This document shows positions 4,494 through 47,340 of a stretch of 64,000 nucleotides of DNA, in pieces; positions within the stretch are counted from its first letter, which is position 1; every line of letters begins with the position of its first letter. The stretch comes from Escherichia phage BP9. The stretch lies in the sequence record PP488543.1; one strand, given 5' to 3'. Under the pieces are notes generated by a model. It worked only from the letters and a program-made list of their open reading frames with translations, searched no databases and was not told where the DNA came from. The translations under genes were made by a program, and so were the position numbers.

Positions 4494-4526
4494 ATCTAGA
4501 TGGTATCGGAGTGTCCTGGAGAGGTT

Positions 4527-5411: not shown

Positions 5412-5423
5412 GGGGAGCGTATA

Positions 5424-5804
5424 ATGGAGCTTAAAGATTGGTGCATAATCACCTTTGTGTGGGACATTGACGGCTTTCCTGATCAAACCATGCGTGTTGT
5501 TTTAGACAACGAAACGTATGAAATGCGTATGCAATGGAATGAGAGGGATGAGTCTTGGTGGTTATCTCTTGGTCCAGTAGGTGACAGCCCTTTAGTAACC
5601 AGAAAAGTAACAGCTTGTCAAGATATCTTAGACGGACTGCATTATAGAGACGATTTACCGAAAGGTAGATTGATGGCACTGTCGTTTAAAGATGATCAAT
5701 ATTGGGGCAGGGTTGGAAGATACAACCTTGGAGCAAGATCCGAGCTACAACTTGTATACGGCACTCCAGTTGATCTTTACAAGGAACAGCAAGGGTTAGA
5801 ATAA
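5424..5804 (+). CDS. small baseplate/tail protein of unknown function (126 aa)
   Basis: Translationally coupled (stop/start overlap at 5804) to the gpD-like hub gene. Confidence 0.3.
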   Translation: MELKDWCIITFVWDIDGFPDQTMRVVLDNETYEMRMQWNERDESWWLSLGPVGDSPLVTRKVTACQDILDGLHYRDDLPKGRLMALSFKDDQYWGRVGRYNLGARSELQLVYGTPVDLYKEQQGLE

Positions 5805-6808
5805 TGGCAGAGTACAGACGTAGAACATGGCGATTATTGTTTGGTCGTCCTGTAGAACATGGCGGTAAATCAAAAACCAATATCCCAAAATCTGTTGAAA
5901 AGAAAGGGGAGAGTGATTCCGGAGTTTATGAAGTTAGCTCAGACACTGGTGCTGCCAATATAGAGTTTGACATACAAAAGGACAATACCAAAGAGCCAAA
6001 CAAAGGTTATGTGACAGTTTACAACCTGTCCGACGATACAGTTAACTATCTGGATATGCATCAGGCTGATGCTCTTGCAGTTATGTTTGAAGCTGGCTAT
6101 GATAATGAGAACCAGTTGATATTCTCCGGAACTGTGGAGTTTGTTGAAGACAGATGGGAAGGTCCTACCAGAAAAACTAAGTTCATCTTTGGGGATGGCA
6201 CTGAGAACATCATTAAGTGCCAAAGCACAAGATCTTATCAGAAAGGCACACCTCTGAACTCTGTGCTTAATGACTTACTGAAGGATATGAACTTGCCAAA
6301 AGGTAGGGTTGTTGGTTTTGGAAACCAGACTTTGCAATACTCTATGGCTTTCTCTGGAAACACTGCAGAGAACCTCCGCAGGTTTGCAAGGCTGACCAAC
6401 TCAACATTTAGCGTTCAGGATGGGGCTTTGTATTGGACCAAGGTTGGAAAAAGGTTCAAAGACTCTGTGTTTGAAATAAGCGCAGAGTCTGGGATGCACG
6501 GATCTCCTACCCCTAAAAACCCAGAACCTGCTAAAAAACGAAAAGCTAAAGCTGCTGCCAAAGGTGGTTCGACATCTAAAAAGAAAAAGAAAAACCCGAG
6601 AGAGGATGTTGGCCTTACTGTAACCACATGCCTTAACGGAGCTATCCTCCCAGAGTCCACTATTTATCTTAAAAGCAAGCAATATACAGGCTTCTATAAG
6701 GTGATCACGGTGCATCATAAGGGCACCATAGAAGGTGGTGATTACACTACAGAGCTTGGCCTTGGGGAAACAGTGGGTGGAGTTGTTGACAAAACTGAGG
6801 AGGTATAA
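5804..6808 (+). CDS. baseplate hub protein, Phage_GPD (P2 gpD / Mu gp44 / gp27-like) family
   Basis: C-terminal signature similar to the P2 gpD terminus (GFYKVITVHHKGTIEGGDYTTELGLGE versus GFKPEID..WIITRVTH..GYQTTLELE); size 334 aa; located upstream of the spike and wedge genes. Confidence 0.55.
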   Translation: MAEYRRRTWRLLFGRPVEHGGKSKTNIPKSVEKKGESDSGVYEVSSDTGAANIEFDIQKDNTKEPNKGYVTVYNLSDDTVNYLDMHQADALAVMFEAGYDNENQLIFSGTVEFVEDRWEGPTRKTKFIFGDGTENIIKCQSTRSYQKGTPLNSVLNDLLKDMNLPKGRVVGFGNQTLQYSMAFSGNTAENLRRFARLTNSTFSVQDGALYWTKVGKRFKDSVFEISAESGMHGSPTPKNPEPAKKRKAKAAAKGGSTSKKKKKNPREDVGLTVTTCLNGAILPESTIYLKSKQYTGFYKVITVHHKGTIEGGDYTTELGLGETVGGVVDKTEEV

Positions 6809-7485
6809 TGGCAATAAATAGGAAAGATGCTGCTGTAAGATCCTTCATAGAAAAAATAATGAGGGACTACCACACCAGTATCAGGGCCAGAGTTGTCAGT
6901 GTAGACTACAGTATCCCTTCTGCATCTGTGCAGCCAATAGCTGAAACCACGTTTGATGACGGAGATGTGGAGAGATACCCCCTTATCTATGACGTTCCAA
7001 TTCAGGTGATGTCTGCAAACAGCGGAAAGGCAAGGTTAACACTTCCTATTAAGGCCGGAGATGTTGTAGGATTGCAGTTTTCAGAGAGGAATGAAAACAA
7101 TAACGACGATCAACAAACTCACGGCCTGTTTCCAGGGTGGGCAATCACCTCCGTTCATTCAGACTCAAACGCTTTACAGATCGATCCTGATAACGTAGAG
7201 TTATGGAATGATAGGGTTTATTTTAAACTGACACCTTCTGGCGATTTTGAGCTTCAGACACCGGGTGGAACATTACGGTGCGACAGCAGCGGGGAGTTTT
7301 CTTTCACTAACGGTGCTGCCAATTTGCGAGCTGCTGTGGATGGAAATATCAGAATGAATGGTGCCACAATAGACCCATCTGGTAGAATTATAACTGCTGC
7401 TGGCGTGGATTTGGATTCATTCTATGCAGAATATAAAGGTCATACCCACTCTTGCCCTGATGGCGAGACAAGTGGACCGCACTAA
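6808..7485 (+). CDS. baseplate central spike protein (P2 gpV / Mu gp45-like, OB-fold plus metal-binding apex)
   Basis: C-terminal GHTHSCPDGETSGPH matches the gpV terminus HTHKHPGDSGGTTGSPL; N-terminal region resembles the gpV OB-fold; start overlaps the hub stop. Confidence 0.7.
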   Translation: MAINRKDAAVRSFIEKIMRDYHTSIRARVVSVDYSIPSASVQPIAETTFDDGDVERYPLIYDVPIQVMSANSGKARLTLPIKAGDVVGLQFSERNENNNDDQQTHGLFPGWAITSVHSDSNALQIDPDNVELWNDRVYFKLTPSGDFELQTPGGTLRCDSSGEFSFTNGAANLRAAVDGNIRMNGATIDPSGRIITAAGVDLDSFYAEYKGHTHSCPDGETSGPH

Positions 7486-7497
7486 TAGAGGGCTTTC

Positions 7498-8214
7498 ATG
7501 GCTACGCTTTATAGTGATATATTGATGGACCCACAGACAGGCGATTTGGCGATAGACAAAGGTCTTGAGTTGATAGATTCAAACCAGGTAAGTCTGCGCC
7601 AGCGCTTGTGGATGAGATTTAATACGTGGAAGGGGAGCTGGTACTTTGACGAGCTGTTTGGCTTCCCTTATATGGACTTTCTCAGCAAGAAGGTCATGAA
7701 GACTGTTCTTGATAACAAGATTATGGAAGTGGCAAGACAAGAGCCGGATGTGCTAAACATCATAAACTTCCAATCTACCATGGATAGAAGATCGAGAACA
7801 TACCAAGCGTTCTTTGAGGTTGTTACCAAAGAGAACGAGATTGTAAGGCTGGCTTTTGTAGGTCTTGATCAGTTCACCTACCCACAGCCTGATTCTGGGA
7901 CAACCTCCCTCTGTGATGATGAGGGTTGGATTAAGTGGGCTAATAAACTGTACTATCTGATCAACTTCAGATTGCCTAGAACCGGAGATGCCACATGGTG
8001 GAACCAGTATGCTGGTCCTGAGATGGAAAACCCGATCCCTGTAGGCTCTCTGTTGACTCAGGATAAAGATCTGCTGATGACTGAGGCAGAACAAACCATT
8101 AACCGCAATACCTGGACGCTTGCTCCAGATGAGCGCGAATACTCTGGTGTTATTGCTACCTCCAATGATGAGGCTATTGCCAACCAGTCTGGTCGTGCTA
8201 TTGATGTTAACTAA
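7498..8214 (+). CDS. baseplate wedge protein, gp25/gpW-like (DUF2634-type) with C-terminal extension
   Basis: N-terminal pattern D..TGDLAIDKG..L..QRLWMRFNTWKGSWYFDELFGFPY resembles the gp25/W family consensus. Confidence 0.45.
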   Translation: MATLYSDILMDPQTGDLAIDKGLELIDSNQVSLRQRLWMRFNTWKGSWYFDELFGFPYMDFLSKKVMKTVLDNKIMEVARQEPDVLNIINFQSTMDRRSRTYQAFFEVVTKENEIVRLAFVGLDQFTYPQPDSGTTSLCDDEGWIKWANKLYYLINFRLPRTGDATWWNQYAGPEMENPIPVGSLLTQDKDLLMTEAEQTINRNTWTLAPDEREYSGVIATSNDEAIANQSGRAIDVN

Positions 8215-8223
8215 GGAGAAATC

Positions 8224-8892
8224 ATGGCTGTAGCTTATCCTACAATACCAATTCCAGATCTTGAAGATGCAGAAACAGTCCTGAGTGATGACTTCTTGGT
8301 TGTCAACCAGACTGATGGGACAAGAAAGGCTAAGATTGACGATGTTGTCAACGATCTTAGCATCACTAAGATAGTCTATTTCACAGAGGGTGGTTATCTT
8401 AAGAGCAAGAAGGACTTTGCTTATGATCCAGAAACTAAGCGCTACTACACGTGGAACGGGGATTATCCTAAAATAATCCTCCCAGACTCCACTGTAGAGG
8501 GTGCTGGGGGTGTGTCTGCAAATGCCTGGTCTGTTTTTGGTGAGCTTGCTGCAACTTCTTCTGGCAGAATAGTTGATTACGGATCTATCGGTGGTCAGCT
8601 TGATATGGATCTTGAAGTTGCGGATACCTTTAAGGTTCGACTAACTTCAAATACCACAATCTCTTTTGAAAATCAAACAGAAGGTCTTGAAGGGGTGGCG
8701 AGAACTATAACCGTATGCATTACTCAGACCTCTGGCGGCAACAAAGTCTATTGGCCAGGTAATGTTAAATGGTCCTACGGAAGAGATCCTATCCTAACAT
8801 TTACAGCTGGTGCAACAGACATTTTCAAGTTGGAAACCTACGACAACGGGTTAACTTGGTACGGGGCACTGATTATCGCAGGAGCTATCTAA
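8224..8892 (+). CDS. short fibre/adaptor protein sharing the N-terminal anchor domain of the long fibre
   Basis: N-terminal ~100 aa (DDFLVVNQTDGTRKAKIDDVV..GGYL..DFAY) are clearly paralogous to the N-terminus of the 11528..15340 fibre (DDYLVVQQPDLTRRVKIGDVV..GGKL..DFAY). Confidence 0.5.
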   Translation: MAVAYPTIPIPDLEDAETVLSDDFLVVNQTDGTRKAKIDDVVNDLSITKIVYFTEGGYLKSKKDFAYDPETKRYYTWNGDYPKIILPDSTVEGAGGVSANAWSVFGELAATSSGRIVDYGSIGGQLDMDLEVADTFKVRLTSNTTISFENQTEGLEGVARTITVCITQTSGGNKVYWPGNVKWSYGRDPILTFTAGATDIFKLETYDNGLTWYGALIIAGAI

Positions 8893-8893
8893 G

Positions 8894-11491
8894 ATGCGTA
8901 TTCAACATAACATTGATAACGTATTTCAGATGATTGAGGGGCACAGGAAGTGCCTCGATAACAACACAGGCATTACCAATCTCCCTACGCAGAACAAGCT
9001 GGTAAACCCTGATGGTCTTATAGCTGCAGGGTGGGCAGGTAATAAGATAAATAATGATTGGGCAATGCATGAGTCCCAAGCTGTGTTGATTCTGGGATAC
9101 ATTGAAGCATACAGGGCATCGAAAAGCGATTTCTATCTGGATAGGGCAAAAGATGCTTGGGAAGCTTACAATAGTCATCTTCTGGGTGCATATGCAGTAG
9201 AAAGTAAAATGCAAAGATTGTCCCACTACCCTCTATCTACAGATGGGGTTCCATCACATGGTGGGTTTAAAGATGTGGTGGTGTCTTTTACCAATGGTAG
9301 AGGAAAAATCCCAGCTGGATCTCCGACATGGGGAGAATACCTGGACAAGGCATTCCAAGCGTATAACGGTGTGTTAGGAAGAAACACGGTAGACTCCGAT
9401 GTTTACGGTGGCACAGATGCTAACCCAGATTGGACAACATCCGGATTAAGTTGGTGGGTTGAGTGGTATATAGCATGGGATGGTAACCGCTATTGGGCTA
9501 ACGGTAGCATAGCCGACAGTGGGCATACGTCTGTAGAGTTCGGCACAATCCAATTACAAGATAAGGGTGTTACAGGAAGCCACAAGGTAACCTATTGTGT
9601 AAGATTACCTCAAGAGCAGGGTGGATCGGTGATACCTGCAGGATCCCCTGTAATTGTGAATCCTATAAACGTGGTTGCAGACAATCAAGCCCCAGAGTTG
9701 GACGGGGAAGAAATGTGGTGTGACGCTTGTTATCAACTCTACACCTTGACAGGTGAGGAAAAGTATTACACCGCGTTTAAACAGTCTTACAACAAGTTGC
9801 TTAATTTCAGTGATATAAACGCCTACGACAAACTGTTTAGAAAGACCACGTTGATTAAGGCACCATTTACAGATGGTGCTTGTCTTGTTGCAGGAACAGT
9901 TCCTGTCATGATCAGGGATAGTGACGGGTATATCAATTTTAGAATGAACGCACGCCAGCCTTGCGAAATAATTCAAAAAGGGACTACATACAAAATAGGC
10001 AGAGATGCTGAAATTGTTATGAATTTCGGAGGAGAAGGGGTTCTGTTCCAGCCACATTTCATCCTTAATGATGGCAACAATAACAAAAAACAGTACAGGA
10101 TAGGTGTTCCTTTTGGAGGTGCAGAGGTAACAGAAATAGTTGCCAAGGTTACTGATTTCGTAGAGGTAGTTGGTAAAGACGGTAATCCGTACCTCTTACC
10201 TAAAGAGGAAAACATTGCCGTGAGCGGTGGTGCCAGTGTTAGTATGCAGTACGATACCGACATTTACAACCACTCTGACAACTTCACCCGTTGTAATATA
10301 GCAAGGGGCAAAGTAACTTTCAATTTTGGAAGAGAGATTTCTTTAAACTCAGTAACTTATCGATCAGATGATGAGATGGTAAGGGTCAAATTTCTTGACA
10401 AAGACAGGTGGTTATGGTATGCTGATCTATATGCCACTAATGGACAATGGATAACAGAAACTCTTACTCTAGGAGATTTCAAACTAGATCCGACACAACC
10501 TCATCACACCGAAGAAGAGATTAAACCTTTCTTTGCTAATCCTAAGGGGCTCACCTCTGTAGATTTCAGCCTAAGCGACAGGCAGATAGGTAATGGCTTG
10601 TTTGACCTATATTGTGTCAACACACTGCCGCAATTTTATATTGCAGATAGAGATGCTTATCTAATCTGGTTTAGCGTATGGATGGCAAGCAAGACAGAAT
10701 CAACCGCTAGGGTTGGCGATTGCTATGTCAGAAACTACAAGCAAGGCGCATACAGGCACACACCGGGTGTGTTCCCTGCCGGAAAGGTGATAGATAAGGA
10801 AAACTATCTCTTAGAGGAAAAGCCAAATTGGCCCTACCCTGGCATGCAATATCCAGCAGTCTACTGCATGGGTGCAGAAAACATAGATCGCCATAGATTG
10901 TCAAATACAATAGGCTTTCTGTATGACGCTCAAGTCTGGTATAATAATACATTTAAGACAGAGGGTCCAGTTGCCTCGCGTTATGTATGGCAGAGAGGTA
11001 ATGAAGGGCTGACTGGTTGGTGGGAGATGGTAGATAACTCTAAACTCCAGTCAAGATCTTTTGTTGCTGCGTGCCGCACAATATATGAGCTCAAGAAACA
11101 TAAAGAACCTGTTGATGAAAGACTATTCCTGTTCTGCCAGAAATGGGCATGGTTCCTCAACAGATTCCAGTCATCTCATTCAGGAAATCTGCCCACAGAC
11201 TTTAACACCTCTGGGGGATATTCTTATCAAGACAGAGGAGACAGGATGTGGGTGGTAGGTGAATGGCTTGCAGGTTGCTGCTGGCTAGGTCTGTGCGGGT
11301 ATTCAGAGACAATACCTCAAATAGATATTGTTGTGGAAGCCTGTGTGAAGCTACTGCAAAAGCACCACTTCATTAATGGGGATAATATTTTAAACGGCTG
11401 CTGGGCAGTTTCTGATCCGGTTGGCTATCACTCTGGCGAAATCCTTCGCGGTCTGGGCCTTTATGCTCAATACCGTGGATTGTACCTTTAA
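8894..11491 (+). CDS. putative virion-associated polysaccharide-degrading protein (alpha/alpha-toroid-like ends with a beta-rich insert), 865 aa
   Basis: Trp/Tyr-rich N- and C-terminal segments reminiscent of (alpha/alpha)6-barrel glycosidases/lyases; located among fibre genes. Weak, composition-based inference. Confidence 0.3.
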   Translation: MRIQHNIDNVFQMIEGHRKCLDNNTGITNLPTQNKLVNPDGLIAAGWAGNKINNDWAMHESQAVLILGYIEAYRASKSDFYLDRAKDAWEAYNSHLLGAYAVESKMQRLSHYPLSTDGVPSHGGFKDVVVSFTNGRGKIPAGSPTWGEYLDKAFQAYNGVLGRNTVDSDVYGGTDANPDWTTSGLSWWVEWYIAWDGNRYWANGSIADSGHTSVEFGTIQLQDKGVTGSHKVTYCVRLPQEQGGSVIPAGSPVIVNPINVVADNQAPELDGEEMWCDACYQLYTLTGEEKYYTAFKQSYNKLLNFSDINAYDKLFRKTTLIKAPFTDGACLVAGTVPVMIRDSDGYINFRMNARQPCEIIQKGTTYKIGRDAEIVMNFGGEGVLFQPHFILNDGNNNKKQYRIGVPFGGAEVTEIVAKVTDFVEVVGKDGNPYLLPKEENIAVSGGASVSMQYDTDIYNHSDNFTRCNIARGKVTFNFGREISLNSVTYRSDDEMVRVKFLDKDRWLWYADLYATNGQWITETLTLGDFKLDPTQPHHTEEEIKPFFANPKGLTSVDFSLSDRQIGNGLFDLYCVNTLPQFYIADRDAYLIWFSVWMASKTESTARVGDCYVRNYKQGAYRHTPGVFPAGKVIDKENYLLEEKPNWPYPGMQYPAVYCMGAENIDRHRLSNTIGFLYDAQVWYNNTFKTEGPVASRYVWQRGNEGLTGWWEMVDNSKLQSRSFVAACRTIYELKKHKEPVDERLFLFCQKWAWFLNRFQSSHSGNLPTDFNTSGGYSYQDRGDRMWVVGEWLAGCCWLGLCGYSETIPQIDIVVEACVKLLQKHHFINGDNILNGCWAVSDPVGYHSGEILRGLGLYAQYRGLYL

Positions 11492-11527
11492 CATAGGGGG
11501 GCTGTTTGCCCCCTTTCAGGAGAAAGA

Positions 11528-14500
11528 ATGGCTGATATTAAAGTTGTCAGAATTGAATCTCTTCCTGCCACTACCGCAGTGACAGAGGATGATTACCTGG
11601 TTGTTCAACAACCAGACCTGACCCGTCGTGTAAAAATTGGCGATGTTGTCCATGTTGATGGGACTGTTTCTCATGTAATCTCCTTTAAGGAAGGTGGTAA
11701 GTTAAACGGCCCAATGGATTTTGCCTACTTCGAAGAGGAAGACCTCTACCTGCGTTGGAAAGGCGAATTTCCGCACACTGTTCCTGCACTATCTTCACCG
11801 TACTCCGATGGCGGGATTACTGACGCTGCATGGATGGTATATACTGACCCGTCCTTAAGGGAGGAGCTGGAATCTACCATTGGCGCATCCATGATCATGA
11901 CAGCCGAAGGGCAGTCTGTCCAGGATGTAATGGATGTTACTGTTCAGACAGCTAACGATGCCAAAGCACTTGCACAGCGTGTAGATTTTGGTACAGTGCA
12001 CACTGTAGGCGATGTTATTCACCTTGATAACTTTGTTGGCCCTGCAGTTATTGAAGAGGGAAGAACTACCAACTACCCTTCTGTAGCAGCTGGTGAAAAA
12101 TTTCTGAACGGTGTGGTATCTCGTCGTGATACTACAACTGTTGATGGTATTTTCCGTGGCGCTACCTCCGGAGCAATGTATACCATTGCAGTAACCAACG
12201 GTGTAGCAACAACAAAAAGAATAGCACTTCGTGATGAATTTAAACGCCTGGAGGCAAACAACCAAACAAGAACAATTATCCGTGCTGGAGATGATTTAAA
12301 CACGGCAGGGTACTTGCAGCTTGATGCAACAGGCCGTTGGGGTATGTGGAACCAACAAACAGCTTCTTGGCAGCCTCTTGCTATAGAGCAGGGCGGCACA
12401 GGGGCTAGAGATGCCGCTGGAATCCGTACCAATATCGGTGCTTTCTATAAGCAACGTGCAGCCCTTGAGCCAAATTTCAATATCAATAACTTGACTGGTA
12501 ATCAGGATGGTATATACTACCAGCCGATGACTGCTTATGCAACTGAGGCAAATGGTTATCCTGCAGGTTCTGGTGCTGGTCACTTGATTGTTTGGCAGAA
12601 CAATGCTAACGGTGGTACAGGTTGTCGTCAGGAATACTATCCATTCTCCAACGTAGATGTTTGGTATTTGAGAACCTATCAGGCCAACACAAATCAGTGG
12701 ACTGCATGGCAGCCGATGGTCAGACCTCGTAACGATGATACCTTTAGAGCGCACATCGGTCTCGGGTCTAGAAACTCCCCTACCTTCGGGCACCTTTACC
12801 TGTCTCAAAGCTCTGCGGATGTTAAGTCAGCATCAGGTATTGTTAACGGAGACAAATACAACGCTGACGGTGTCCTTGAGCATGGGTATAGGATCTACTC
12901 TGAGGTAAGGAACGACAATAAGGCTTGGTTGACAATCCACCTGCACAAAGGTGCAAAAGGATCTGAAACTCATAGATATTTAGGCTTCCGTGAGGATGGG
13001 GTCTTAGATTGTCCTAAATATATGCAGGTTGGTGATCTGAACGGTCAGATGGCAAACTGGGGACTTGGAGAATGGATCCGCAGTTCAGGAGCAGAAAGAG
13101 GTTTCTGGGGATCTAAGAAAGCCGCCAAGATGGTCATCTGGGATGGCGGTATGGACGAGCAAGGTGAAGGAACGCTTGAGTGGGGTGTTTATAACAACCG
13201 GAAAGCCAAATGGGAACCACTACCGATAGCTTGTGGTGGTACCAGTGCCAGGACTGTAGGGGATGCTCAAGCACAATTCAGAATCCCTCTGGCAGCAGGT
13301 ACTAGACCATATGTAAACCTGCCTAGAACTGCAGCTATGCAGGACGGTAAGTATTATCCTATTATCGTCAGAACTGACCCCAACTTTGCAGCAACTATCG
13401 GGACAGATTTAACCATTGTCACCAGATCTTCTTCTGGCGGCGACCCAATGAACTGTGCTACACTACAGTGTCACTACAGAATTGGTGGCTGGACAGACAG
13501 AGGTGATTCTTTCCAAGGGGTTATTAATTTCTACCAAAACGAGAAAGCAATCCTCGGATGTGTATCTCCAACCAGAGGTAAGCAGGAGTATGTTGCATTC
13601 TATGTAGAGGCACGTGCATTCCCTGTTACAGTATATGCTGGCGCTACTGTAATAGAAGTGTCAACCAGGGAGGTTGATTGGCAGGTAGGCAACGTGGAAG
13701 GTAACCAAGATGGTGTCAAGTTCTGTGCTCCTCTGGCATCTGCAGATTTGAGTCTTGCAATCAAAGGTGATGATGTAACAAACACTAGACCTCTGGTTGA
13801 GTTCAAAGGGACATCAGGTTTCTACACTGGTGGTGGAACTATGTGGCACTACCTGGGAACTCCTGAACGCTATGCAGTGATGAGCAAAATGAACATGCCT
13901 AAAGTCGAGCTTTGGGCAGACGGTATTGACTACATTTGTCCTGGTAGTCAGACCACTAGAAAAGCACTGTTCTCTAACGCAGGGTTCCAAGCTGCATCGG
14001 AAGGAACAGAGGATCTGATCAACAACACCTTTACCTCTAAATGTGGTAATGGTGCAAGACTACAAGGCCAGGCAGAGTTCAGATCTACTCCAGAGGCTGG
14101 TCAAGTTATTGTTCGTGATGTTGTAGGCACAGCTCATAGATTCTATAACTTCAACAAAGATGGCACTTTCTCAGCCCCTGGTGGTTTTGTATGTCATACT
14201 GGTGCAGACTGGAACAACCAGTTTGGGCCTAACAACCCTTCTAAAATAATGGCAGGCAATGTCAACGGACCTGAAGGATCGATGGTTGTTGGTGGGTTGT
14301 CTGTGGCGTTTTCTGGAAACTATGCCTTCCAAATGGCTGGTCGCCTTGATCAGTTATACACCAGATCTATCGAGGGTGGTAACCATAGGGCATGGAACAA
14401 AGTTATTCAGCACCGTGGTCAAGGTCTGGGGACAGAAGACCTTAATGACTACGATGGTAGCCGTGAAGGTTTCTATCACCAGGGTTCAAACGCTGACGCA

Positions 14501-15340: not shown

Positions 15341-15347
15341 CTGTTTT

Positions 15348-15372
15348 GCCCCCGCTTCGGCGGGGGCTTTTT
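15348..15372 (+). terminator. rho-independent terminator (cccccgc-UUCG-gcggggg + T5)
   Basis: Perfect 7-bp GC stem with ttcg tetraloop and ttttt, 8 bp after the fibre stop. Confidence 0.8.
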
Positions 15373-15379
15373 GTTTGTA

Positions 15380-15408
15380 TTGCGTATTAACTCAAAATCT
15401 GGTAAAAT
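15380..15408 (+). promoter_or_regulatory. sigma70-type promoter with extended -10 (TTGCGT-17 bp-TGgTAAAAT)
   Basis: -35 at 15380-15385, -10 TAAAAT at 15403-15408 with TG at -15/-14; same -10 block as the promoters at 1226 and 21196. Confidence 0.55.
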
Positions 15409-15439
15409 AACTATCATGATTGTTTAACCGGGAGGCACA

Positions 15440-16030
15440 ATGTTTTTATGGGAAAGGCCTAGATACCTTCCAGATATTAGATTGGAGCTGCTGGCAGATA
15501 TTGTTACGTTTAAAAGTCCGTTTACAGGTAAAACGCAAAAAGTAACCTATGCCACACCTAACTGGAAAGGCACTTTGACGGTTTCCAATATCAGCGAGTC
15601 ACAGTTGCTAGAGCTTAAGAGCTTTGTTGATCAGGTGTATAAAGATGGAAACATCTTTCTTATTAAAACTTACGGTCACTCAGTAACAGCTAATGAGCCA
15701 ATCGCCCTCGGGCCTACTGGTAACGATGATTTTTTGAGGACGGTTGGGTGGGAGCCAAACAGAGACATAGCCAGAGCTGGGGATAAAATATCTGTCAATG
15801 ATGAATTGAAAGTGGTAACAGCTCCAGTGCGTAGCGATGGTGTTGGGTCTGCTGTTATAAGCATATCTCCAAGACTTAGAAAACCTATTGCCGCAGGGGA
15901 CACTATGAAGATAATAACTCAATCCCCGAAGGGTAGGTTTCATATCAGAGATATTTATAAAATTAAGCAAAAAGTCGATGCTATGCAAAAAGGGGATAAT
16001 ATAGTTATCAACTTCTTTGAGGATTTCTAA
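15440..16030 (+). CDS. putative distal tail / minor tail protein (lambda M or GTA Dit-like position)
   Basis: First gene of a four-gene unit ending in the lambda J-like gene; assignment by synteny. Confidence 0.3.
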   Translation: MFLWERPRYLPDIRLELLADIVTFKSPFTGKTQKVTYATPNWKGTLTVSNISESQLLELKSFVDQVYKDGNIFLIKTYGHSVTANEPIALGPTGNDDFLRTVGWEPNRDIARAGDKISVNDELKVVTAPVRSDGVGSAVISISPRLRKPIAAGDTMKIITQSPKGRFHIRDIYKIKQKVDAMQKGDNIVINFFEDF

Positions 16031-16135
16031 GATGATCAGAGCGCCATTAGATAATTTATTTCTTGAAAGCTGGAGCTTGATGGTGTTGAGATCTTAATTG
16101 CTGCAAAGCTGGAGCTACCGACAGGAACTGTCAGG

Positions 16136-16582
16136 GTGTGCTCAGGCACTGGTGTTGTAGTAATTGAGGGGCAACATTTTATAGGGATAGGTGGGTCAGC
16201 AACATTAACCGCTGTGTCTGAGAAAGATGCCACCAACTTCGGATCTGTGGTAGCGACATTGAACGGGTTTGATCCTAAGTATGTGGGTGATCTGCTGAAG
16301 ACGGAGTATTCTGGTTGTCGTGCCACGTTGTACATTACCGCTATGGAGAATGGTCTGCCTGTTACAACTAATGGCTTGTTTGACGGCCTTATAACAGATA
16401 TGGCTATTCAGACGGGTGAGAATAGCGCTTTGTCCATATCCATCTCTTCCATCTTCAACAGTTGGTTAAGAGGTTTTCCTTATCGGTACACGGAGGAAAG
16501 CCACAGCTCAAGAAACGATAACGACAGATTTTTTAAATATGTGGATCAGGTGGCGAGCCGCCCGATCATTTGGGAGGTTTAA
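16136..16582 (+). CDS. putative minor tail protein (lambda L / hub-associated position)
   Basis: GTG start at 16136 in the track; the frame is open upstream to about 16055 with a possible TTG start near 16076. Synteny only. Confidence 0.3.
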   Translation: MCSGTGVVVIEGQHFIGIGGSATLTAVSEKDATNFGSVVATLNGFDPKYVGDLLKTEYSGCRATLYITAMENGLPVTTNGLFDGLITDMAIQTGENSALSISISSIFNSWLRGFPYRYTEESHSSRNDNDRFFKYVDQVASRPIIWEV

Positions 16583-17007
16583 TGAGCACACATCCTCGTC
16601 TAGTGGACTGGCAAGAAAGATTGTGGAAAGTGTTTGACGAAGAGGCCACCATACCTTTTGAATGGGGATTCCACGATTGTTGCACCTTTGCAGCTAAGTG
16701 TGTTGATGCCCAATACGGAACAGATTTTCTTTCTAACTTCGAAGGAACGTATAAAACAGAGTTGGAAAGCAAAAGATGGTGCATGCTCCGTTTCAAAACC
16801 ACACACCTGCCTACTATTTTTGATCTCTTTATGACTCGGCTGGATACTCCTAAACAGGTTCAGCGTGGAGATATTGTCATTTTCGAAGGTCTGAACGGCC
16901 TCACCGCTGGTGTGTTCTGGAACAACCAGATTTGGGCGAAAGGTGATAAAGGGGTCTTTATGTTCGATATGAAAGATTCTATCGTTGTTGATGTCTGGAG
17001 GTATTAA
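16570..17007 (+). CDS. NlpC/P60-like cysteine peptidase-fold tail protein (lambda K / GTA phage-NlpC family)
   Basis: FEWGFHDCCTFAAKCVDAQYG contains the His-Asp-Cys arrangement typical of phage tail NlpC/P60 proteins; directly precedes and overlaps the J-like gene. Confidence 0.5.
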   Translation: MGGLMSTHPRLVDWQERLWKVFDEEATIPFEWGFHDCCTFAAKCVDAQYGTDFLSNFEGTYKTELESKRWCMLRFKTTHLPTIFDLFMTRLDTPKQVQRGDIVIFEGLNGLTAGVFWNNQIWAKGDKGVFMFDMKDSIVVDVWRY

Positions 17008-20000
17008 TGCCAATTGCAATGATTGATAACATCGTTGCTTCTGCAAGATCTTCAAGTTATGACTGGAACGCATCCAAGGCAGCTCTGGCTGACAGCCTGA
17101 ACACTGTTACCACCAGAACTCTGGATAAGATTTTTGAGGGTAACAAATCTTACAGAAGTCAGCAAGATAGACAAAAGCTTCTCAGATCTTCTGCTGCACC
17201 CTGCTCTGTAGTGTATGGAAAGACACGCACATCTGGATTGCTTGCGTTTTTGGAGCAGGATAGAGACAAAACCCTCCATTGTGCTATTGTTCTTGCCAAT
17301 CACCCTCTGGAAGGTATAGAAGATATACTTATCGATGGTAATCCTATTTCCTCGTATGGAGATTTGGTATCGTGGGAGTTACATAACGACAGAAAAACGG
17401 CTGATCCTTTCATGGGGACACACTGCCCATCGTGGTCACCAGACATGATAGGTAGAGGGATCAGTTGGCTACGTGCCAGCTTCAAGTTCGACCCTAACAA
17501 GTTTCCTTTTGGGTTGCCAAACGTTACACTCGTTAAGGTTGGTAAAAAATGCTATGATCCTCGTATCAGTAAAGAGGTGTACACCAATAACGCATCCTTG
17601 GTGATCCTGGACTATTTAAGAACGTACCTTAAATGTCCTGACGAAACCATCAACTGGGAGTCCTTTAAGGAGGCTGCCAACATATGCGACGAGGCGGTAA
17701 AAAACGCTGACGGAACCAGTGAGCGACGTTACACCATTAACGGTGAGTTTGACATGGATGAGGCCCCAGCAAGTATTATGGCAGAAATGCTGAAAGCTTG
17801 CGGTGCAGACCTTAGTTATGTTGCTGGTAAGTATGGTTTGCTGGTTGGTGCATACTATGGTCCGGCAACAATGACATTGAGTGAGGACTGTGTCTGTGGT
17901 GAGGTTAAGATCTATCCGGAAGCCTCATTTGACAAAAGATCTAACACAATAACTGGCAGATTCACTAGTCCGACCAAAGGGTATTCTGAAACAGATTTCC
18001 CATCAGTGTTTGTCCCAGAGTGGATAGAGAAGGATGGAGAAAGAAAGATAATCGATATAGACTATCGCTTTGTTACCAGTCCTTATCAAGCTCAACGTGT
18101 TTCTGCAATCTTCTTAAGACGTGCTAGAGCTGGCAGGATTATTGAAGTCACCTGCAATATGCGAGGTTTTAAATTTAAGCCTGGCCGTTACGTTACAATG
18201 AATCTCCCAAGTATTGGTATAGTAGGCCAAGAAATGAGGGTTCTTGAATGGGAGTTCACCAAAAAGGGTGGTGTCAAGGTAAAACTTCGTCAAGATGCTA
18301 AAGAGTGGAATGATGCCACAGGGCAACTTCCGGATTCTGGTGATGTAGATATTCCGATATCTCCATCTGGTGTAGCTCAACCGCAAAACTTCAGATACTC
18401 CGTCCTCCAAGCTGGGGAAATAACTCACGGTGTTCTGGCTTGGGACAACGTTGGGACTTACGCTCAAAATATTGTGCAGGTAAGAAAGAACGGAGAGATT
18501 GTTTGGACAGCACAGACAGTTGAGCAGTTTGTCCGAGTAGAAGGCTTGACCAAAGGGTCATACACAGCAACCGTGGTTGCAACATCTTATAAAGGTGGTG
18601 TATCTCCAGAAGCGTACTGCGAGTTTAACATTCAGGCACCTGAAGCTCCTGTTTCTGTAGAGGTTAAGCAGGGATACTTTGCTATCACCTTGATTCCACA
18701 CAGCAGGGATTTAGCAAGTGTAAGCACCCAGTATGACTTTTGGACATCTGGTATGACAAGGTTGCCCGACACCAGCGATGCAACCGTTACTTCAAACGCC
18801 ACCCGTATGGGTGTTGGTTCAACTTGGACATCCGAAGGTCTGCAGAACGATAAGGTTTATTATTGGTATATTCGAACCACAAACGCTTTTGGTAGCTCTC
18901 AGTTTGTAGAGTGTGCTGCACGCTGCTATACCTCCATTGAGGATTTGATGCCTCAGATAGATGCTGAATTCAAAAAGACAGAAACTTATAAAGAGTTGAT
19001 GAGCACTTTGGATTCCTCTATTGAAGAGGTTGAAAATCGTGTCACAGAACTTAACAGGTACATGGATGGTAGAGTTGACGAGGCTTTTGACCACATGGAA
19101 GGTGAGTTCTCTAGAGTAGACAAGCTGTATGCTCAGTTGGGAGATAGGGTTGGAATATTCATCCAAGAAACCCACGACAACTTCCAGGACGTTAATGGAA
19201 CGCTTACCACTCTAGATCAGAAACTGGTAGCCACTCAGAACAAGTTTGCAGATGATCTTTCTAAAGAAAGTGGCAAGCTTGCTTCTCTAATCCAGACCAC
19301 TAACAAAGCTACAACCGATCTGTTAAATCAGAAAACTGAAGCTTTGGACGAGAAGATTGTTTCAACCAGGGGTGAGTTGGAAGATGCTTTAGCGCAGGAA
19401 AGCTCTGAGCTGAACTCCCTGATTGTATCAACCAATAAAACGACTACAGATCTCCTTAATCGGAAAACCGAGGCTTTAGACAATAAGCTGACGGCAACGA
19501 AAGGTGAGTTGACCAACAATCTGCAGAATGAGAGTGCTAAACTATCGTCCTTGATTGAGTCAACCAACAAATCCACCACTGATCTTCTTAATAAGAAAAC
19601 AGAGGCGTTGGATGAAAAACTGGTTGCTGCACAGGGCGAGTTGACTGAGCAGATCGGAGATGTTGAAAAAGGCTATCTGGCTGGTGATAAGAGCCTAGAG
19701 GGCAAGTTGAATACTCAAAGATCTGAGTTGGATGCGAGCATTCTGAGCACTAACCAGGCCACTGTGGACTTGCTGAACAGAACTTCTGAGACTCTTGACC
19801 AGAAGATTAGCCAGACCAACGCCACAGTGTCCAAAAACTACACCACGCTTGATGGTAAGATAAACACCGCCAAGTCTGATCTTAATACGTTGATTTCTAC
19901 CACCAACAAGGCCACAACTGACCTGTTGAATCAGAAAACGGCAGCTTTGACTGAGCAGTTAACCACTGCTAAAGGGCAGATTACAACCAACACCAATAAT

Positions 20001-21152
20001 ATTACTGGGTTGGACAATAAGCTGACTCAGACGAAGAAAGACTTGTCTGCGAATATTTCTGAAACTAATAACGCCACTGTTGATCTGATTAACGGCACAG
20101 CGTCAGCTATTCGTCAAGAACTTGCTGTTGCTAAGCAGGAGATCATTGATGGTGTTGGCGATGTGTCCGAGATCAGGGCTGCAGTAGCTACAACAGCTAA
20201 GGCTGTGACCGACTTAGAGGGTAAAGTAAATGCTCAGTGGGGTACAAAAATACAGGTAGACTCCGCAGGGAATAAATATGTTGCAGGTATCCAGTTGGGG
20301 ATGGAAGGGTCTGGGGGCCAAGTTCAATCCTACTTCATGGTTAGTGCAAACAATTTTGCGGTATACAATCCTGGCAATGGAACAGCAACCCTTGCTTTCG
20401 CAATCAAGAACAACCAAGCGTTCTTGAAAGACGCTTTTATAGAGAATGGCACGATCTCCTCTGCCAAGATCGCACAAGAAATTTCGTCAAACAACTACGA
20501 TGGCAACGGGTACCATAAATACGGTTGGTATATTAACAAGAACGGGCACGCCCAATTTATGGATGTGTGGGTGAAAGGCAACATCAACGCCAGTTCTGGT
20601 AACTTCACAGGGGCAGTTAACGCCACTAGTGGTACCTTCCGTGGGGATGTTTATGCCAATAATGGTAGCTTTAGAGGCACCATAGATGCAACCGGAGGTA
20701 CCTTCCGTGGTCGTGTAGAAGCTTCTGTTATCCGTGCCAACCAGTTCGAAGGTGCAATTGTTGCACACAGGACTTACGGGGATTGTGCTCCAGTATATAA
20801 CTCTCAGCAAAGGGTTTGCCGTTGGAGGTGGAGATACGTAGATAACGTTTCAGGTCAGGGTAAGAACGTAACATTCTTCTTTAAACTGAACGGTACTCTT
20901 GCCAGCTCCCAACTGAATGCATGGATAGCTGGTCATCAGATCCTTGCTGGCAAGAAGTATTTTAACGACAACAACGGCATGTGTGCGGTAGGGATAACAG
21001 GTCTGGGTGAACAAACTATAGACATTGTTATCGAGATTTACACACCGTGGTCAACGTCGAGCGTGACAGGTGTCACAATCTCCTGTCCCACTGTGATAGT
21101 AAGTCGTTCAAACTCTAGCTTCCAGGGACCTTGGAACGAGTCTCACGACTAA
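17007..21152 (+). CDS. lambda J-like host specificity / central tail fibre protein (1381 aa) with internal coiled-coil repeat insert
   Basis: Segment ILDYLRTYLKCPDETINWESFKEAANICDEAV...RYTINGEFDMDEAPASIMAEMLKACGADL parallels the lambda J Phage-tail_3 core (AWCLWDMLTHPRYGMG...DKWALYVIGQYCDQSV...RITCNAYL). Further matches: APEAPVSVEVKQGYFAITLIPH versus lambda [23 protein letters not shown], and KIQVDSAGNKYVAGIQLGMEGS versus lambda [21 protein letters not shown]. Confidence 0.8.
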   Translation: MPIAMIDNIVASARSSSYDWNASKAALADSLNTVTTRTLDKIFEGNKSYRSQQDRQKLLRSSAAPCSVVYGKTRTSGLLAFLEQDRDKTLHCAIVLANHPLEGIEDILIDGNPISSYGDLVSWELHNDRKTADPFMGTHCPSWSPDMIGRGISWLRASFKFDPNKFPFGLPNVTLVKVGKKCYDPRISKEVYTNNASLVILDYLRTYLKCPDETINWESFKEAANICDEAVKNADGTSERRYTINGEFDMDEAPASIMAEMLKACGADLSYVAGKYGLLVGAYYGPATMTLSEDCVCGEVKIYPEASFDKRSNTITGRFTSPTKGYSETDFPSVFVPEWIEKDGERKIIDIDYRFVTSPYQAQRVSAIFLRRARAGRIIEVTCNMRGFKFKPGRYVTMNLPSIGIVGQEMRVLEWEFTKKGGVKVKLRQDAKEWNDATGQLPDSGDVDIPISPSGVAQPQNFRYSVLQAGEITHGVLAWDNVGTYAQNIVQVRKNGEIVWTAQTVEQFVRVEGLTKGSYTATVVATSYKGGVSPEAYCEFNIQAPEAPVSVEVKQGYFAITLIPHSRDLASVSTQYDFWTSGMTRLPDTSDATVTSNATRMGVGSTWTSEGLQNDKVYYWYIRTTNAFGSSQFVECAARCYTSIEDLMPQIDAEFKKTETYKELMSTLDSSIEEVENRVTELNRYMDGRVDEAFDHMEGEFSRVDKLYAQLGDRVGIFIQETHDNFQDVNGTLTTLDQKLVATQNKFADDLSKESGKLASLIQTTNKATTDLLNQKTEALDEKIVSTRGELEDALAQESSELNSLIVSTNKTTTDLLNRKTEALDNKLTATKGELTNNLQNESAKLSSLIESTNKSTTDLLNKKTEALDEKLVAAQGELTEQIGDVEKGYLAGDKSLEGKLNTQRSELDASILSTNQATVDLLNRTSETLDQKISQTNATVSKNYTTLDGKINTAKSDLNTLISTTNKATTDLLNQKTAALTEQLTTAKGQITTNTNNITGLDNKLTQTKKDLSANISETNNATVDLINGTASAIRQELAVAKQEIIDGVGDVSEIRAAVATTAKAVTDLEGKVNAQWGTKIQVDSAGNKYVAGIQLGMEGSGGQVQSYFMVSANNFAVYNPGNGTATLAFAIKNNQAFLKDAFIENGTISSAKIAQEISSNNYDGNGYHKYGWYINKNGHAQFMDVWVKGNINASSGNFTGAVNATSGTFRGDVYANNGSFRGTIDATGGTFRGRVEASVIRANQFEGAIVAHRTYGDCAPVYNSQQRVCRWRWRYVDNVSGQGKNVTFFFKLNGTLASSQLNAWIAGHQILAGKKYFNDNNGMCAVGITGLGEQTIDIVIEIYTPWSTSSVTGVTISCPTVIVSRSNSSFQGPWNESHD
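19240..20180 (+). repeat. tandem ~40-45-aa coiled-coil repeats (about 6-7 units) inside the J-like gene
   Basis: Recurring unit S(L/I)I.STNK(A/T)TTDLLN.KTEALD.KL....GEL seen repeatedly in the translation, with corresponding DNA periodicity. Confidence 0.7.
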
Positions 21153-21160
21153 CCTTTAAA

Positions 21161-21188
21161 GCCCCGCTTCGGCGGGGTTTATTTTTAT
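21161..21188 (+). terminator. rho-independent terminator (gccccgc-UUCG-gcggggt + T-run)
   Basis: Hairpin with ttcg loop followed by ttatttttat, 9 bp after the J-like stop. Confidence 0.8.
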
Positions 21189-21195
21189 GCTCAGA

Positions 21196-21224
21196 TTGAC
21201 TATTGTTACAAAATTTGGTAAAAT
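21196..21224 (+). promoter_or_regulatory. sigma70-type promoter with extended -10 (TTGACT-17 bp-TGgTAAAAT)
   Basis: -35 TTGACT at 21196-21201, -10 TAAAAT at 21219-21224, TG at -15/-14. Confidence 0.6.
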
Positions 21225-21257
21225 ACCTTGTAGAGATTTTCATACCGGAGGAGTGAC

Positions 21258-22748
21258 GTGGCTAAGTATGGATTGACAGAGGCTGGTTTCGTTATACCAA
21301 CCCTAAATGACCTAATCGTTGAAACTAAGCAAAGCCTGATCCGTGCTTTTGGCGAAAACTTCAACGTACAGAGTAACTCCGTTGCAGATAAGCTGACCAC
21401 TATCTTCAACGAGCGAGAGTATCAACTTATTCTTATGGCAGCATCTGTATACGCATCACAGACGCTGTATGGGGCAGAAGGTATTTACCTAGATGAGCTT
21501 CTTGGAAGACAGGGTATTTACCGAAGAGGCCGTTCTAAATCATCAGGTACCTGCCAGTTGACAATCAACACAACTGTGCCGTACAATATGATTTATGATT
21601 CCAAAACTTATACGCTGGACAGTGGCAACTTTGTTCTTAGCAACGATGTGCAAGTAGCAGGGAATCTTATTGCTCACAGAATAAATGCTCCAGACCTAAG
21701 GATTGGGAAATACAACTTCCAAATTACCAACCAGACAGATGGAAGTATCAAAACAAAAAGCCTGGTTTTAACAGATAAGTCTCTGGACTCTTCTGATTTG
21801 CCAAGCTTTTACGGAGAGATTAAGCAATTCATTGTCGATAATACAACCCTGTTGAACGACGATTTGATTCAGATCGATATGTTGACAGGGACGTTGTGGA
21901 TAGGGTACAATTCAAATCTTGATCAAGTTGGACTTAATAGCAGAGTAGATTTCAGAGTATCCCCGATTGTAGGGGAAAGAACTATCACACTGGATGTTAT
22001 CGCTAACGAGGCTGGTGAGCTGTCAAGAGAAGCAGAAACCGTGACAACAATGTCGCCTACTCCTAGTGGATTTATCAAGCTTACCAACCGAGAAAGATTC
22101 AATGAGGGCAGGGATGTTGAGAAAGACTCAGAGTATCGCTTAAGAGCTTCCAGCACAAAACAGTTAACATCGAAGGCTACCCGTCCTGCAATCCTTAGCG
22201 CTGTAAGCGAGGTAAAAGGTGTTGAGAAAGTGAGAGTGTTCTCCAACAACACCGATAAAACTGATGCTAAAGGTATACCTCCTTACAAGTTCCAAGTGGT
22301 TGTGTTTGGTGGTGCAACGGAGGACATTTGCCAAGCACTTTACCAAACTATAGCCTGTACGAACAGGACTTATGGTAATATTTTCTACGATATCACTACA
22401 TCTGACGGTCAAACTGAAAGAATTTATTACTCCAGGGCAAATACCTACCGCCTAGATGTAAGAATTACCTATTCCGGCGCTGCGCTTTCCACAACCGAAA
22501 AAGATGCCATTGTAGAGGCTCTTTTGCAGGTTGTTAACGGACTTGATGTTGCAGATACGTTGTACAATATCCAATTGGTCGGTGCTGCATCCGCTGCTGT
22601 GTCGATAGGTAGATTTAATAGACTGGTAATTCAAGTTAAACCAGTAGGAGCTTCTGATGAAGCTTACACGACAAACGATATTGTTGCGAACATGACCGAG
22701 GTGTTTGACCTCGACGAAAGTAATATAACTTTCCAACAAACTATTTAA
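21258..22748 (+). CDS. putative baseplate wedge protein (baseplate J / gp6-like)
   Basis: GTG start with GGAGG Shine-Dalgarno. N-terminus MAKYGLTEAGFVIPTLNDL...FGENFNV resembles the N-terminal pattern of baseplate J-family proteins as I recall it; downstream partner of a gpI-like position. Not verified. Confidence 0.4.
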   Translation: MAKYGLTEAGFVIPTLNDLIVETKQSLIRAFGENFNVQSNSVADKLTTIFNEREYQLILMAASVYASQTLYGAEGIYLDELLGRQGIYRRGRSKSSGTCQLTINTTVPYNMIYDSKTYTLDSGNFVLSNDVQVAGNLIAHRINAPDLRIGKYNFQITNQTDGSIKTKSLVLTDKSLDSSDLPSFYGEIKQFIVDNTTLLNDDLIQIDMLTGTLWIGYNSNLDQVGLNSRVDFRVSPIVGERTITLDVIANEAGELSREAETVTTMSPTPSGFIKLTNRERFNEGRDVEKDSEYRLRASSTKQLTSKATRPAILSAVSEVKGVEKVRVFSNNTDKTDAKGIPPYKFQVVVFGGATEDICQALYQTIACTNRTYGNIFYDITTSDGQTERIYYSRANTYRLDVRITYSGAALSTTEKDAIVEALLQVVNGLDVADTLYNIQLVGAASAAVSIGRFNRLVIQVKPVGASDEAYTTNDIVANMTEVFDLDESNITFQQTI

Positions 22749-22759
22749 GGCGGCGAGAT

Positions 22760-23446
22760 ATGGCAGAGATTAAGTCGGATGTTAACCACATCCACACTCT
22801 GCCAGATTTTGTTCAGGGAGGTCTTGACTACCTACCTGGAGATTTTCTGGCTGAGAAGGTTAATTTAGTCACATTCTTAACCGTATACCTTAAAAGGTTG
22901 GAGGATGTTGATAAGATGCTGGTAGGTTTGGCTGAAGGAAGATTGCTTAACAATGCCAGCGGAAGATACCTTGACGAAGTTGGTAATCAATTTGGTATTC
23001 TTAGGAATGGACTTTCAGATGCTGATTTTCGTGCCACACTAATTATTCAGCAGGCCGCAGCATCAAGGGGCGGGACTCGCGAAGATGTCATCTCCACCTT
23101 GCGACAATTGTTCGGAAGAGACAATTTCGATACGTGGAAAGGAGACAACTTCAGGTTTGACATAAATATTAGAAAAACTTGCTTTGACATATTGCAGTCT
23201 ATCGATCAGATCTTAGATATGCTACCATTGCCTTGTCATTTGCGTCTTACAGAATCGCAAGGGCAAGCTTTTGGTTTTGAAGGGGACTCTACAGCTCTTG
23301 GCTTCGGATCGGTGTGGGAAGAAAACCAATTCGGAGTTGGTGGGCTGGCTACTTTGCTGTATGTTCCTGACGTAAGACCTGATTGGGACACCACAACCAT
23401 TTATTGTGAAAGTATTACAGTAAACGCAACTAGACAGGAGGGTTAA
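22760..23446 (+). CDS. baseplate/fibre-associated protein of unknown function (gpI-like position)
   Basis: Position between the putative baseplate J gene and the first distal fibre gene; no motif recognised. Confidence 0.25.
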   Translation: MAEIKSDVNHIHTLPDFVQGGLDYLPGDFLAEKVNLVTFLTVYLKRLEDVDKMLVGLAEGRLLNNASGRYLDEVGNQFGILRNGLSDADFRATLIIQQAAASRGGTREDVISTLRQLFGRDNFDTWKGDNFRFDINIRKTCFDILQSIDQILDMLPLPCHLRLTESQGQAFGFEGDSTALGFGSVWEENQFGVGGLATLLYVPDVRPDWDTTTIYCESITVNATRQEG

Positions 23447-47311: not shown

Positions 47312-47340
47312 CCCCCGCTTCGGCGGGGATTTTCTATTTG
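47312..47340 (+). terminator. rho-independent terminator (ccccgc-UUCG-gcgggg + T-rich)
   Basis: Same hairpin core as the terminators at 15348 and 21161. Confidence 0.75.

Follow-up and report, generated by a model that had tools for sequence, protein, structure and literature searches.

The contractile tails of phages phi92 of Escherichia (PDB 21vq) and phiTE of Pectobacterium (PDB 9cuy/9mjn) end in a simple baseplate, and the published structures contain exactly a tube initiator, a plug/spacer, a hub, a spike, a sheath initiator and two wedge proteins. The tail tip of lambda is made up of gpM, gpL, gpK, gpI and gpJ (PDB 8iyk) and that of T5 includes pb9 and pb3 (PDB 4jmq, 7zhj), while in the Queuovirinae, such as Seuratvirus GottfriedDienst (Bas21) and the Nonagvirus-like JenK1, the tip module adjoins the tape-measure gene and closes a non-contractile tail. 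In the present study, a stretch of 64,000 nucleotides from Escherichia phage BP9 (PP488543.1; the whole stretch is called the window below) was analysed, in which a putative cassette of four siphovirus tail-tip genes (15440-21152) lies within the genes of a contractile baseplate. The cassette was probably acquired horizontally and reused as a conserved off-axis adhesin fibre on this baseplate, a position in the virion that we infer from the arguments given below. The rV5-like phages, to which BP9 belongs, are among the most often isolated coliphages and, because of their broad host recognition, are candidates for therapy.

When positions 5000-24000 of the window were used as a megablast query, 127 phage records were matched; in 111 of them the alignment extends over 80% or more of the query, at 90-99% identity. 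With few exceptions, the matching records come from Escherichia phages belonging to Vequintavirus, the genus of the rV5-like myoviruses. The gene tables of EduardKellenberger (BASEL Bas59) and NHEP1 agree with the locus gene for gene, cassette included, and the same arrangement is found in Escherichia phages rV5, FV3 and Murica and in BASEL Bas48-59. By its sequence, the locus is an ordinary Vequintavirus tail and baseplate region, from a coliphage with a contractile tail. A first-pass annotation of the same DNA had not recognised the combination among enterobacterial phages and had held that a well-described genus with exactly the same gene order would speak against its view; Vequintavirus, with more than 110 GenBank records that share 93-96% of their nucleotides with positions 5000-24000, is such a genus. 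The arrangement is already known and is standard for this genus, which has been described since 2013. Existing GenBank labels on the cassette genes read 'tip attachment protein J', 'central tail fiber J' and 'distal tail protein', and no account was found in the literature searched that treats the four genes as a single siphovirus tip complex or places them in a structure. The sequence feature itself is therefore a normal, deposited and partly annotated gene order, and the remaining interest lies in the structural question of the cassette. Eighteen unannotated records (MG065635-MG065690), named 'Campylobacter phage' and mostly assigned to the host Campylobacter jejuni, are ~95% identical to the locus, and their names and host labels look doubtful.

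The putative tail-tip cassette and its siphovirus counterparts

With residues 1-498 of the J-like protein, the product of the fourth cassette gene, as tblastn query, the Vequintaviruses were matched at >95% identity and after them only siphoviruses, namely Queuovirinae (50-57%), PY54 (44%) and phages of Serratia, Providencia, Vibrio, Pseudomonas, Acinetobacter and Roseobacter. In GottfriedDienst, genes of 194, 194, 144 and 1040 codons stand right after the tape-measure gene, and the four genes of the Queuovirinae are collinear with those of BP9, near-equal in size and 32-50% identical (Table 1). The four-gene order directly behind the tape-measure gene is also present in PY54, Vibrio phage 1.056.O, Pseudomonas phage PSA-2T and Roseobacter phage CRP-823, and Acinetobacter phage Loki has the last three genes in the same order. 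As judged from homology and collinearity, the block is a complete four-gene siphovirus tail-tip cassette. The inner block of lambda M/L/K/J type proposed in the first-pass annotation is upheld by these matches, and so is the idea of two tail architectures encoded side by side, contractile baseplate genes and siphovirus tip genes having both been matched. The 128-kb Vibrio phage River4, considered as a large-genome carrier of the cassette, was rejected as a T5-like siphovirus.

The position of the block is not that of its counterparts. Whereas the Queuovirinae module stands next to the tape-measure gene, the BP9 cassette lies 11 kb downstream of it; the genes directly following the tape-measure gene are those of the contractile baseplate, and the cassette comes only behind three fibre genes and a terminator. 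Unlike in lambda and T5, no tape measure or tube is tied to it.

The J-like protein is the 1381-aa allele in BP9, as in NHEP1, and the 1279-aa allele in rV5 and EduardKellenberger. It comprises a hub core (residues ~50-460), FN3/Ig domains (~460-650), a coiled coil with repeats (~650-1060), a tail-tip fibre domain (1059-1199) and a genus-specific C-terminal domain (~1220-1381), that is, a J/pb3-type hub core fused to FN3 domains and a tip fibre. The protein itself scores 13 bits against Phage-tail_3, below the Pfam threshold of 23, and its homologues at 44-50% identity carry this domain. A profile of the N-terminal half (16 sequences) was aligned by hhalign with lambda J residues 192-843 at 99.8% probability (E 1.3e-27), and the same profile matched T5 pb3 at 2e-22, over the hub core. 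The 1381-aa lambda J-like protein of the first-pass annotation is confirmed by these alignments, and the possibility raised there, that the Phage-tail_3 core might be lacking, does not hold. The match to lambda J extends over the hub core, the FN3 domains and the tip-fibre domain. Identity to the J-like proteins of Queuovirinae reaches 50-57% in two stretches, the hub core and the tip-fibre domain, while the coiled coil of BP9 is longer and the final ~160 residues are unrelated; outside the genus, these residues have one weak siphovirus match only, in a phage collection. The coiled coil (window 18950-20190) contains six protein repeats of ~44-55 residues (S.I..TN..T.DLLN.KTEALD.KL), and no DNA-level repeats were detected in the gene by Tandem Repeats Finder. 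It is the only part that differs between the Vequintavirus alleles of 1279 and 1381 residues, and outside it the protein is 96-100% conserved across the genus, C-terminus included.

Sequence searches of the PDB with the other three cassette proteins, both as single sequences and as small profiles, gave nothing convincing (the best match was a T5-like Dit, E 0.16), and fold comparison was therefore used for these small proteins. The product of gene 1, the distal tail protein (Dit), matched T5 pb9 and more weakly lambda gpM, and the product of gene 2 showed the gpL fold; the Dit fold and the gpL-type hub of a siphovirus tip complex are thus both found. The Dit of BP9 is of the two-domain pb9 type and not of the 109-aa gpM type of lambda, and no gpI homologue was seen. 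Fold matches of both proteins also go to the GTA-like siphophage R4C. The four-gene layout and similar sizes are shared with RcGTA-type tips (g12-g15) and with siphophages R4C and JBD30, where the hub protein of BP9, with 183 aa, is ~100 residues shorter than those of JBD30 (272) and R4C (267). At the level of sequence, hhalign gave no match of the Dit and hub-protein profiles to lambda gpM and gpL, a weak match of the Dit profile to the Dit of a T5-like Vibrio phage, and no detectable relation between this profile and BP9's own tube initiator (Pfam Dit_like). No curated family was found in a Pfam scan of 35 Dit-family homologues; in the corresponding scan of the hub family, 2 of 39 homologues weakly matched PF09931 ('baseplate hub N-terminal attachment domain'; best E 0.005), and some homologues of gene 2 are named DUF2163 by UniRef.

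Gene 2 is frameshifted in BP9. The 1-nt deletion shortens an A run (GAAAAG to GAAAG) and is shared by 0 of 116 related phage records. Because the frame downstream of the deletion has zero amino-acid changes relative to EduardKellenberger, the frameshift appears to be a sequencing error or a very recent mutation. Gene 3, at the position of lambda K, had been called NlpC/P60-like. Lambda gpK is a recognisable C40 peptidase, whereas the BP9 counterpart matches only DUF6950 in Pfam, with no NLPC_P60 match even at E up to 10. A Cys motif (F..WG..DC..F) is invariant and was placed by hhalign, together with QRGDV, on the C40 region of lambda K, weakly (E 0.025, probability 2%); the conserved His at the position expected for NlpC/P60 enzymes is absent. 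The NlpC/P60-like label is plausible but unproven. The mechanical list of open reading frames starts the gene at TTG 16570, overlapping the preceding gene, and annotated relatives start it at ATG 16583.

Around the cassette, BP9 has the baseplate set of phiTE and phi92 in the same order. Hub and spike, sheath initiator and wedges, and upstream sheath and tube genes are all present, as in simple contractile-tail baseplates of the Mu/P2/phi92/phiTE type, and alignment to annotated relatives places chaperone genes between the tube gene and the tape-measure gene. No chain of the phiTE and phi92 PDB entries matches the J-like protein. In rV5, the tail is contractile by electron microscopy (PMC3606486), the sheath and tube proteins (the tube being gp52) were detected by virion mass spectrometry, and gp36 and gp45 are baseplate proteins. 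The open reading frames named in the first-pass annotation all exist at their coordinates, and its gpD-like hub, gpV-like spike and possible baseplate J proved correct, the last being wedge 2; the gp25-like part of its gp25/W-like wedge also stood, but the protein is the sheath initiator and not a wedge subunit. A sheath gene, which it had advised looking for upstream, was found at the very start of the window.

Distribution, boundaries and selection

All cassette and baseplate proteins were compared by local tblastn with loci of 31-42 kb that have the wedge gene at their centre. Identity of the baseplate proteins is 59-70% in Seunavirus, 46-57% in Certrevirus and 24-39% in Phapecoctavirus and Justusliebigvirus, whereas the four cassette proteins had no match at E up to 1e-3 in any of these genera within 20 kb on either side of the wedge gene. 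The cassette is accordingly absent from the relatives of phiTE (Certrevirus CR8) and of phi92 (Justusliebigvirus, Phapecoctavirus), and none of the baseplate genes was found by tblastn in the Seuratvirus locus. In Certrevirus CR8, the sheath-initiator gene adjoins the wedge gene; in Seunavirus, Phapecoctavirus and Justusliebigvirus, the slot between them holds fibre and tailspike genes only. Among the relatives that share its baseplate backbone, the cassette was found only in Vequintavirus. An ancestor of this genus would have taken up a complete siphovirus tip cassette in the accessory-fibre slot between the sheath-initiator and wedge genes, from a donor that may have resembled present-day Queuovirinae. 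In G+C content, the cassette does not differ from its surroundings, and the transfer is therefore not recent.

Both edges of the cassette carry the same kind of regulatory region. The two strong intrinsic terminators have a common core, CCCGCTTCGGCGGG, of which the window contains 3 copies against 0 expected, and each terminator is followed by TGGTAAAATA and then by a ribosome-binding site. The two intergenic regions that flank the cassette (99 and 105 nt) agree at 71 positions, ~9 standard deviations above shuffles. In front of the wedge gene, Seunavirus and Certrevirus carry one element only, built alike: a hairpin and then TGATAAAATA. Because the regulatory region is duplicated at both edges, the cassette is predicted to be a late transcription unit of its own, in agreement with the self-contained unit of the first-pass annotation; it may have come with, or later gained, a duplicate of the terminator and late-promoter region found locally, and with it separate late transcription. 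A third exact copy of CCCGCTTCGGCGGG stands at 47314-47327, far from the tail genes, and a third copy of TGGTAAAATA at 1246-1255, between the tube and chaperone genes; these extra copies suggest that the two motifs are shared terminator and late-promoter consensus elements of the phage.

Selection on the region was estimated from pairwise dN/dS among the BP9 window, EduardKellenberger and NHEP1. The ratio was 0.00-0.03 for Dit, the hub protein and the J core, 0.03-0.08 for DUF6950 and 0.02-0.06 for the J C-terminus, compared with 0.00-0.02 for the baseplate hub, spike, sheath initiator and wedges. These values point to strong purifying selection on the cassette.

Place of the cassette products in the virion

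The direct evidence for a cassette product in virions comes from rV5, whose gp37 (1279 aa, COG4733; HHpred matches to Mu gp44-type hub structures) was found by virion mass spectrometry and is the counterpart of the BP9 J-like protein. The micrographs of rV5 show five to six thin fibres of ~70 nm. By our own estimate, the ~410 coiled-coil residues (~60 nm) together with the tip domains fit these fibres, which may be the cassette complex. The J-like protein was annotated in BASEL as 'lateral tail fiber protein with fibronectin type III domain', and the BASEL paper regards the gene-to-fibre assignment in the rV5-like group as unclear. A copy number from the rV5 spectral counts was rejected as too noisy, and no mass spectrometry is found in the O177 'proteomics' paper.

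From these data, the following model can be drawn. The four proteins may still assemble as in a siphovirus, with a trimeric L/J cone closing the Dit ring; ring and cone are probably still formed because all four partners have been kept together. A coiled-coil fibre of ~60-70 nm would extend from the cone and end in the conserved receptor-binding tip. Since the tail axis is already filled by the conserved tube initiator, hub and spike, off-axis attachment is most likely, and the sub-assembly would sit at the baseplate periphery as one of the extra fibre sets of the genus, not as a tube-closing tip. There it could serve as an adhesin for a conserved host-surface receptor; the conserved C-terminus of the J-like protein suggests a conserved rather than a variable receptor. 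More tentatively, the whole tip complex may be assembled with neither tube nor tape measure and then mounted peripherally, probably in several copies, as a fibre unit. An axial tip machine reused in this way as a side appendage is not known from any solved phage tail.

Several points weigh against this model. For gp37, the supplementary data list 4 peptides in 5 spectra, and only one of these peptides, the hub-core sequence GYSETDFPSVFVPEWIEK, is both fully tryptic and strongly scored; gp38-40 of rV5 were not detected. The mass-spectrometry set lists no more than 19 proteins and lacks the hub and spike too, so that the absence of gp38-40 says little. No Vequintavirus virion structure was found in the literature searched, and according to the phiTE paper structural studies have covered no other member of its subfamily. 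As a rule, a Dit hexamer requires a tube and a tape measure to sit on, no second gene for either was seen, and a Dit ring would have to dock on the baseplate without a tube. The conserved C-terminus also argues against a variable host-range role, and other large fibre proteins could equally explain the 70-nm fibres.

Other explanations of the locus were weighed against the same data. An assembly chimera, or contamination from a co-isolated siphovirus, is suggested by the mixed architecture itself and by nothing else, and we give it practically no chance, as more than 110 genomes, sequenced independently, share the junctions, in single alignments across the whole 19 kb, the cassette has the G+C content of its surroundings, and its proteins are only 32-57% identical to any siphovirus. 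The first-pass annotation had offered two alternatives, a J-like protein recruited to a contractile baseplate, which fits the evidence, and a siphovirus tip that has gained hub, spike and wedge proteins, which is rejected. That the phage is basically a siphovirus, or its tip derived from one in this way, would account for the completeness of the tip set; yet the sheath and tube, the tube initiator, the hub and spike, the sheath initiator and the wedges are all there, with 50-70% identity to their counterparts in cassette-less Certrevirus and Seunavirus myoviruses, the tape-measure gene is followed by a contractile-type tube initiator and not by the cassette, and the rV5 tail is seen to be contractile, which together make this origin extremely improbable.

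The remaining alternatives accept the transfer and differ in where, or whether, the products are used. The complex might be axial, a central fibre below or around the spike that takes part in penetration, as the Dit rings and J/pb3 cones are by homology axial and tube-closing and as the automated annotation 'central tail fiber J' implies. We know of no phage structure in which a tip complex is stacked on the spike axis, and this weighs against such a placement. The axis is moreover occupied by the conserved tube initiator, hub and spike, as in the phiTE and phi92 structures, the axial genes are as strongly constrained as the cassette, and the single tape measure has its C-terminus buried in the hub and spike in phiTE; the spike of phi92 ends in an iron-bound piercing apex. 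An axial complex is thus very unlikely. It is less easily dismissed, though still rather unlikely, that the only product in use is the J-like protein, as a fibre, and that Dit, hub protein and DUF6950 are assembly helpers or carried-over genes outside the virion. The frameshift in the hub-protein gene of BP9, if real and the phage viable, would mean that this protein may be dispensable, and lambda K is not known to be part of the virion. Moreover, gp37 is the sole cassette product seen in rV5 virions. However, more than 110 genomes have retained all three of the small genes, at a dN/dS of 0.00-0.08, the frameshift is private to the BP9 sequence, as expected of a sequencing error or a very recent mutation, and the mass spectrometry was too shallow even for hub and spike. 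Reuse of the acquired cassette as an off-axis adhesin fibre is the explanation that we prefer.

If so, the four adjacent genes, read as one transplanted siphovirus tip, provide a concrete and testable assignment for one of the fibre sets of these phages. The cassette would also be a clean example of the exchange of a multi-protein module between tail types, and it points to a conserved adhesin that is possibly engineerable.

Features of the region and neighbouring genes

The features of the tail region are collected in Table 1. The first two of the three fibre genes in the variable slot have homologues in Seunavirus, Phapecoctavirus and Justusliebigvirus.

Table 1. Predicted features of the BP9 tail region, with the evidence for each and, for the cassette genes, the BLASTP comparison with the counterpart in Seuratvirus GottfriedDienst
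Feature	Coordinates	Strand	Evidence	BLASTP against GottfriedDienst
Tail sheath gene, 3' end (window starts inside)	16..651	+	Position of annotated EduardKellenberger sheath and of NHEP1 'similar to tail sheath'	
Tail tube protein	662..1135	+	Annotated tail tube at matching EduardKellenberger position	
Tape measure protein, sole one in region	2086..4422	+	Pfam TMP_3, 1.6e-18	
Tube initiator, counterpart of phi92 gp135	4500..5411	+	Pfam Dit_like 7e-23; gene order as phi92/phiTE	
Baseplate plug/spacer, Pam3 gp18-like, counterpart of phi92 gp136	5424..5804	+	Pfam Pam3_gp18, 2.9e-18	
Baseplate hub, gpD/gp27-like	5804..6808	+	PDB 9cuy_X phiTE hub 7e-110; phi92 gp137 7e-51	
Central spike, P2 gpV/phi92-type	6808..7485	+	Pfam PF18352 spike N-terminal domain 1e-9; 60% identical to annotated Seunavirus baseplate spike	
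Sheath initiator, gp25-like	7498..8214	+	PDB 9mjn_d6 5e-61; phi92 gp139 5.5e-15; phrog_120 1e-20	
Three fibre/tailspike genes (222, 865, 1270 aa), variable slot	8224..15340	+	Tail_spike_N and Peptidase_S74 chaperone domains	
Terminator (15348-15367) and promoter-like element TGGTAAAATA (15400-15409), upstream of cassette	15348..15409	+	Motif matches; ~70% identical to downstream region	
Cassette gene 1: putative distal tail protein (Dit), T5 pb9 type	15440..16030	+	Fold match T5 pb9	32% identity, E 8e-30
Cassette gene 2: putative hub protein, lambda gpL/DUF2163 type	16033..16582	+	gpL fold; frameshifted, 1-nt deletion near 16066	40% identity, E 2e-48
Cassette gene 3: DUF6950 protein, position of lambda K	16570..17007	+	Pfam DUF6950 2.7e-33	45% identity, E 2e-46
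Cassette gene 4: J-like protein	17007..21152	+	Pfam Ig_J, Ig_J_second, Phage_Tail_Tip; rV5 gp37 peptides in virions	50% identity, E 0; spans N-terminal core and tip-fibre domain
Terminator (21159-21180) and TGGTAAAATA (21216-21225), upstream of wedge genes	21159..21225	+	Motif matches	
Baseplate wedge 2, Baseplate_J family	21258..22748	+	PDB 9cuy_T 3e-158; phi92 gp145 9e-56; Pfam Baseplate_J	
Baseplate wedge 1, counterpart of phi92 gp146	22760..23446	+	phrog_4056 baseplate protein 3e-103; phi92/phiTE gene order; 64% identical to Seunavirus counterpart	

The sheath initiator is longer in BP9 (238 residues) than in phi92 (211) or in the phiTE chain (177), and only its residues 1-175 are covered by the matches. 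As the C-terminus of the phiTE sheath initiator joins the helical bundle of the long fibres, the additional C-terminal part in BP9 could be a candidate docking site for fibres.

The gene just after the wedge genes (23446-25518) encodes Pfam domains of the phage N4 'non-contractile tail sheath' (a TIM barrel at 1.9e-79, an N-terminal domain and Calx-beta). A 2026 preprint describes a deacetylase fibre homologous to this product in these myoviruses and ties it to a surface polysaccharide receptor, NGR. The homologue precedes the wedge genes in Phapecoctavirus and Justusliebigvirus rather than following them. Further downstream, two paralogous short-tail-fibre genes (25531-26571 and 27583-28629) flank a gene for a fibre assembly chaperone of lambda type (26586-27170; Pfam Caudo_TAP); their rV5 counterparts, gp33 and gp30, were described as T4 gp12-like in the rV5 paper, and the sister genera apparently have one short-tail-fibre gene each.

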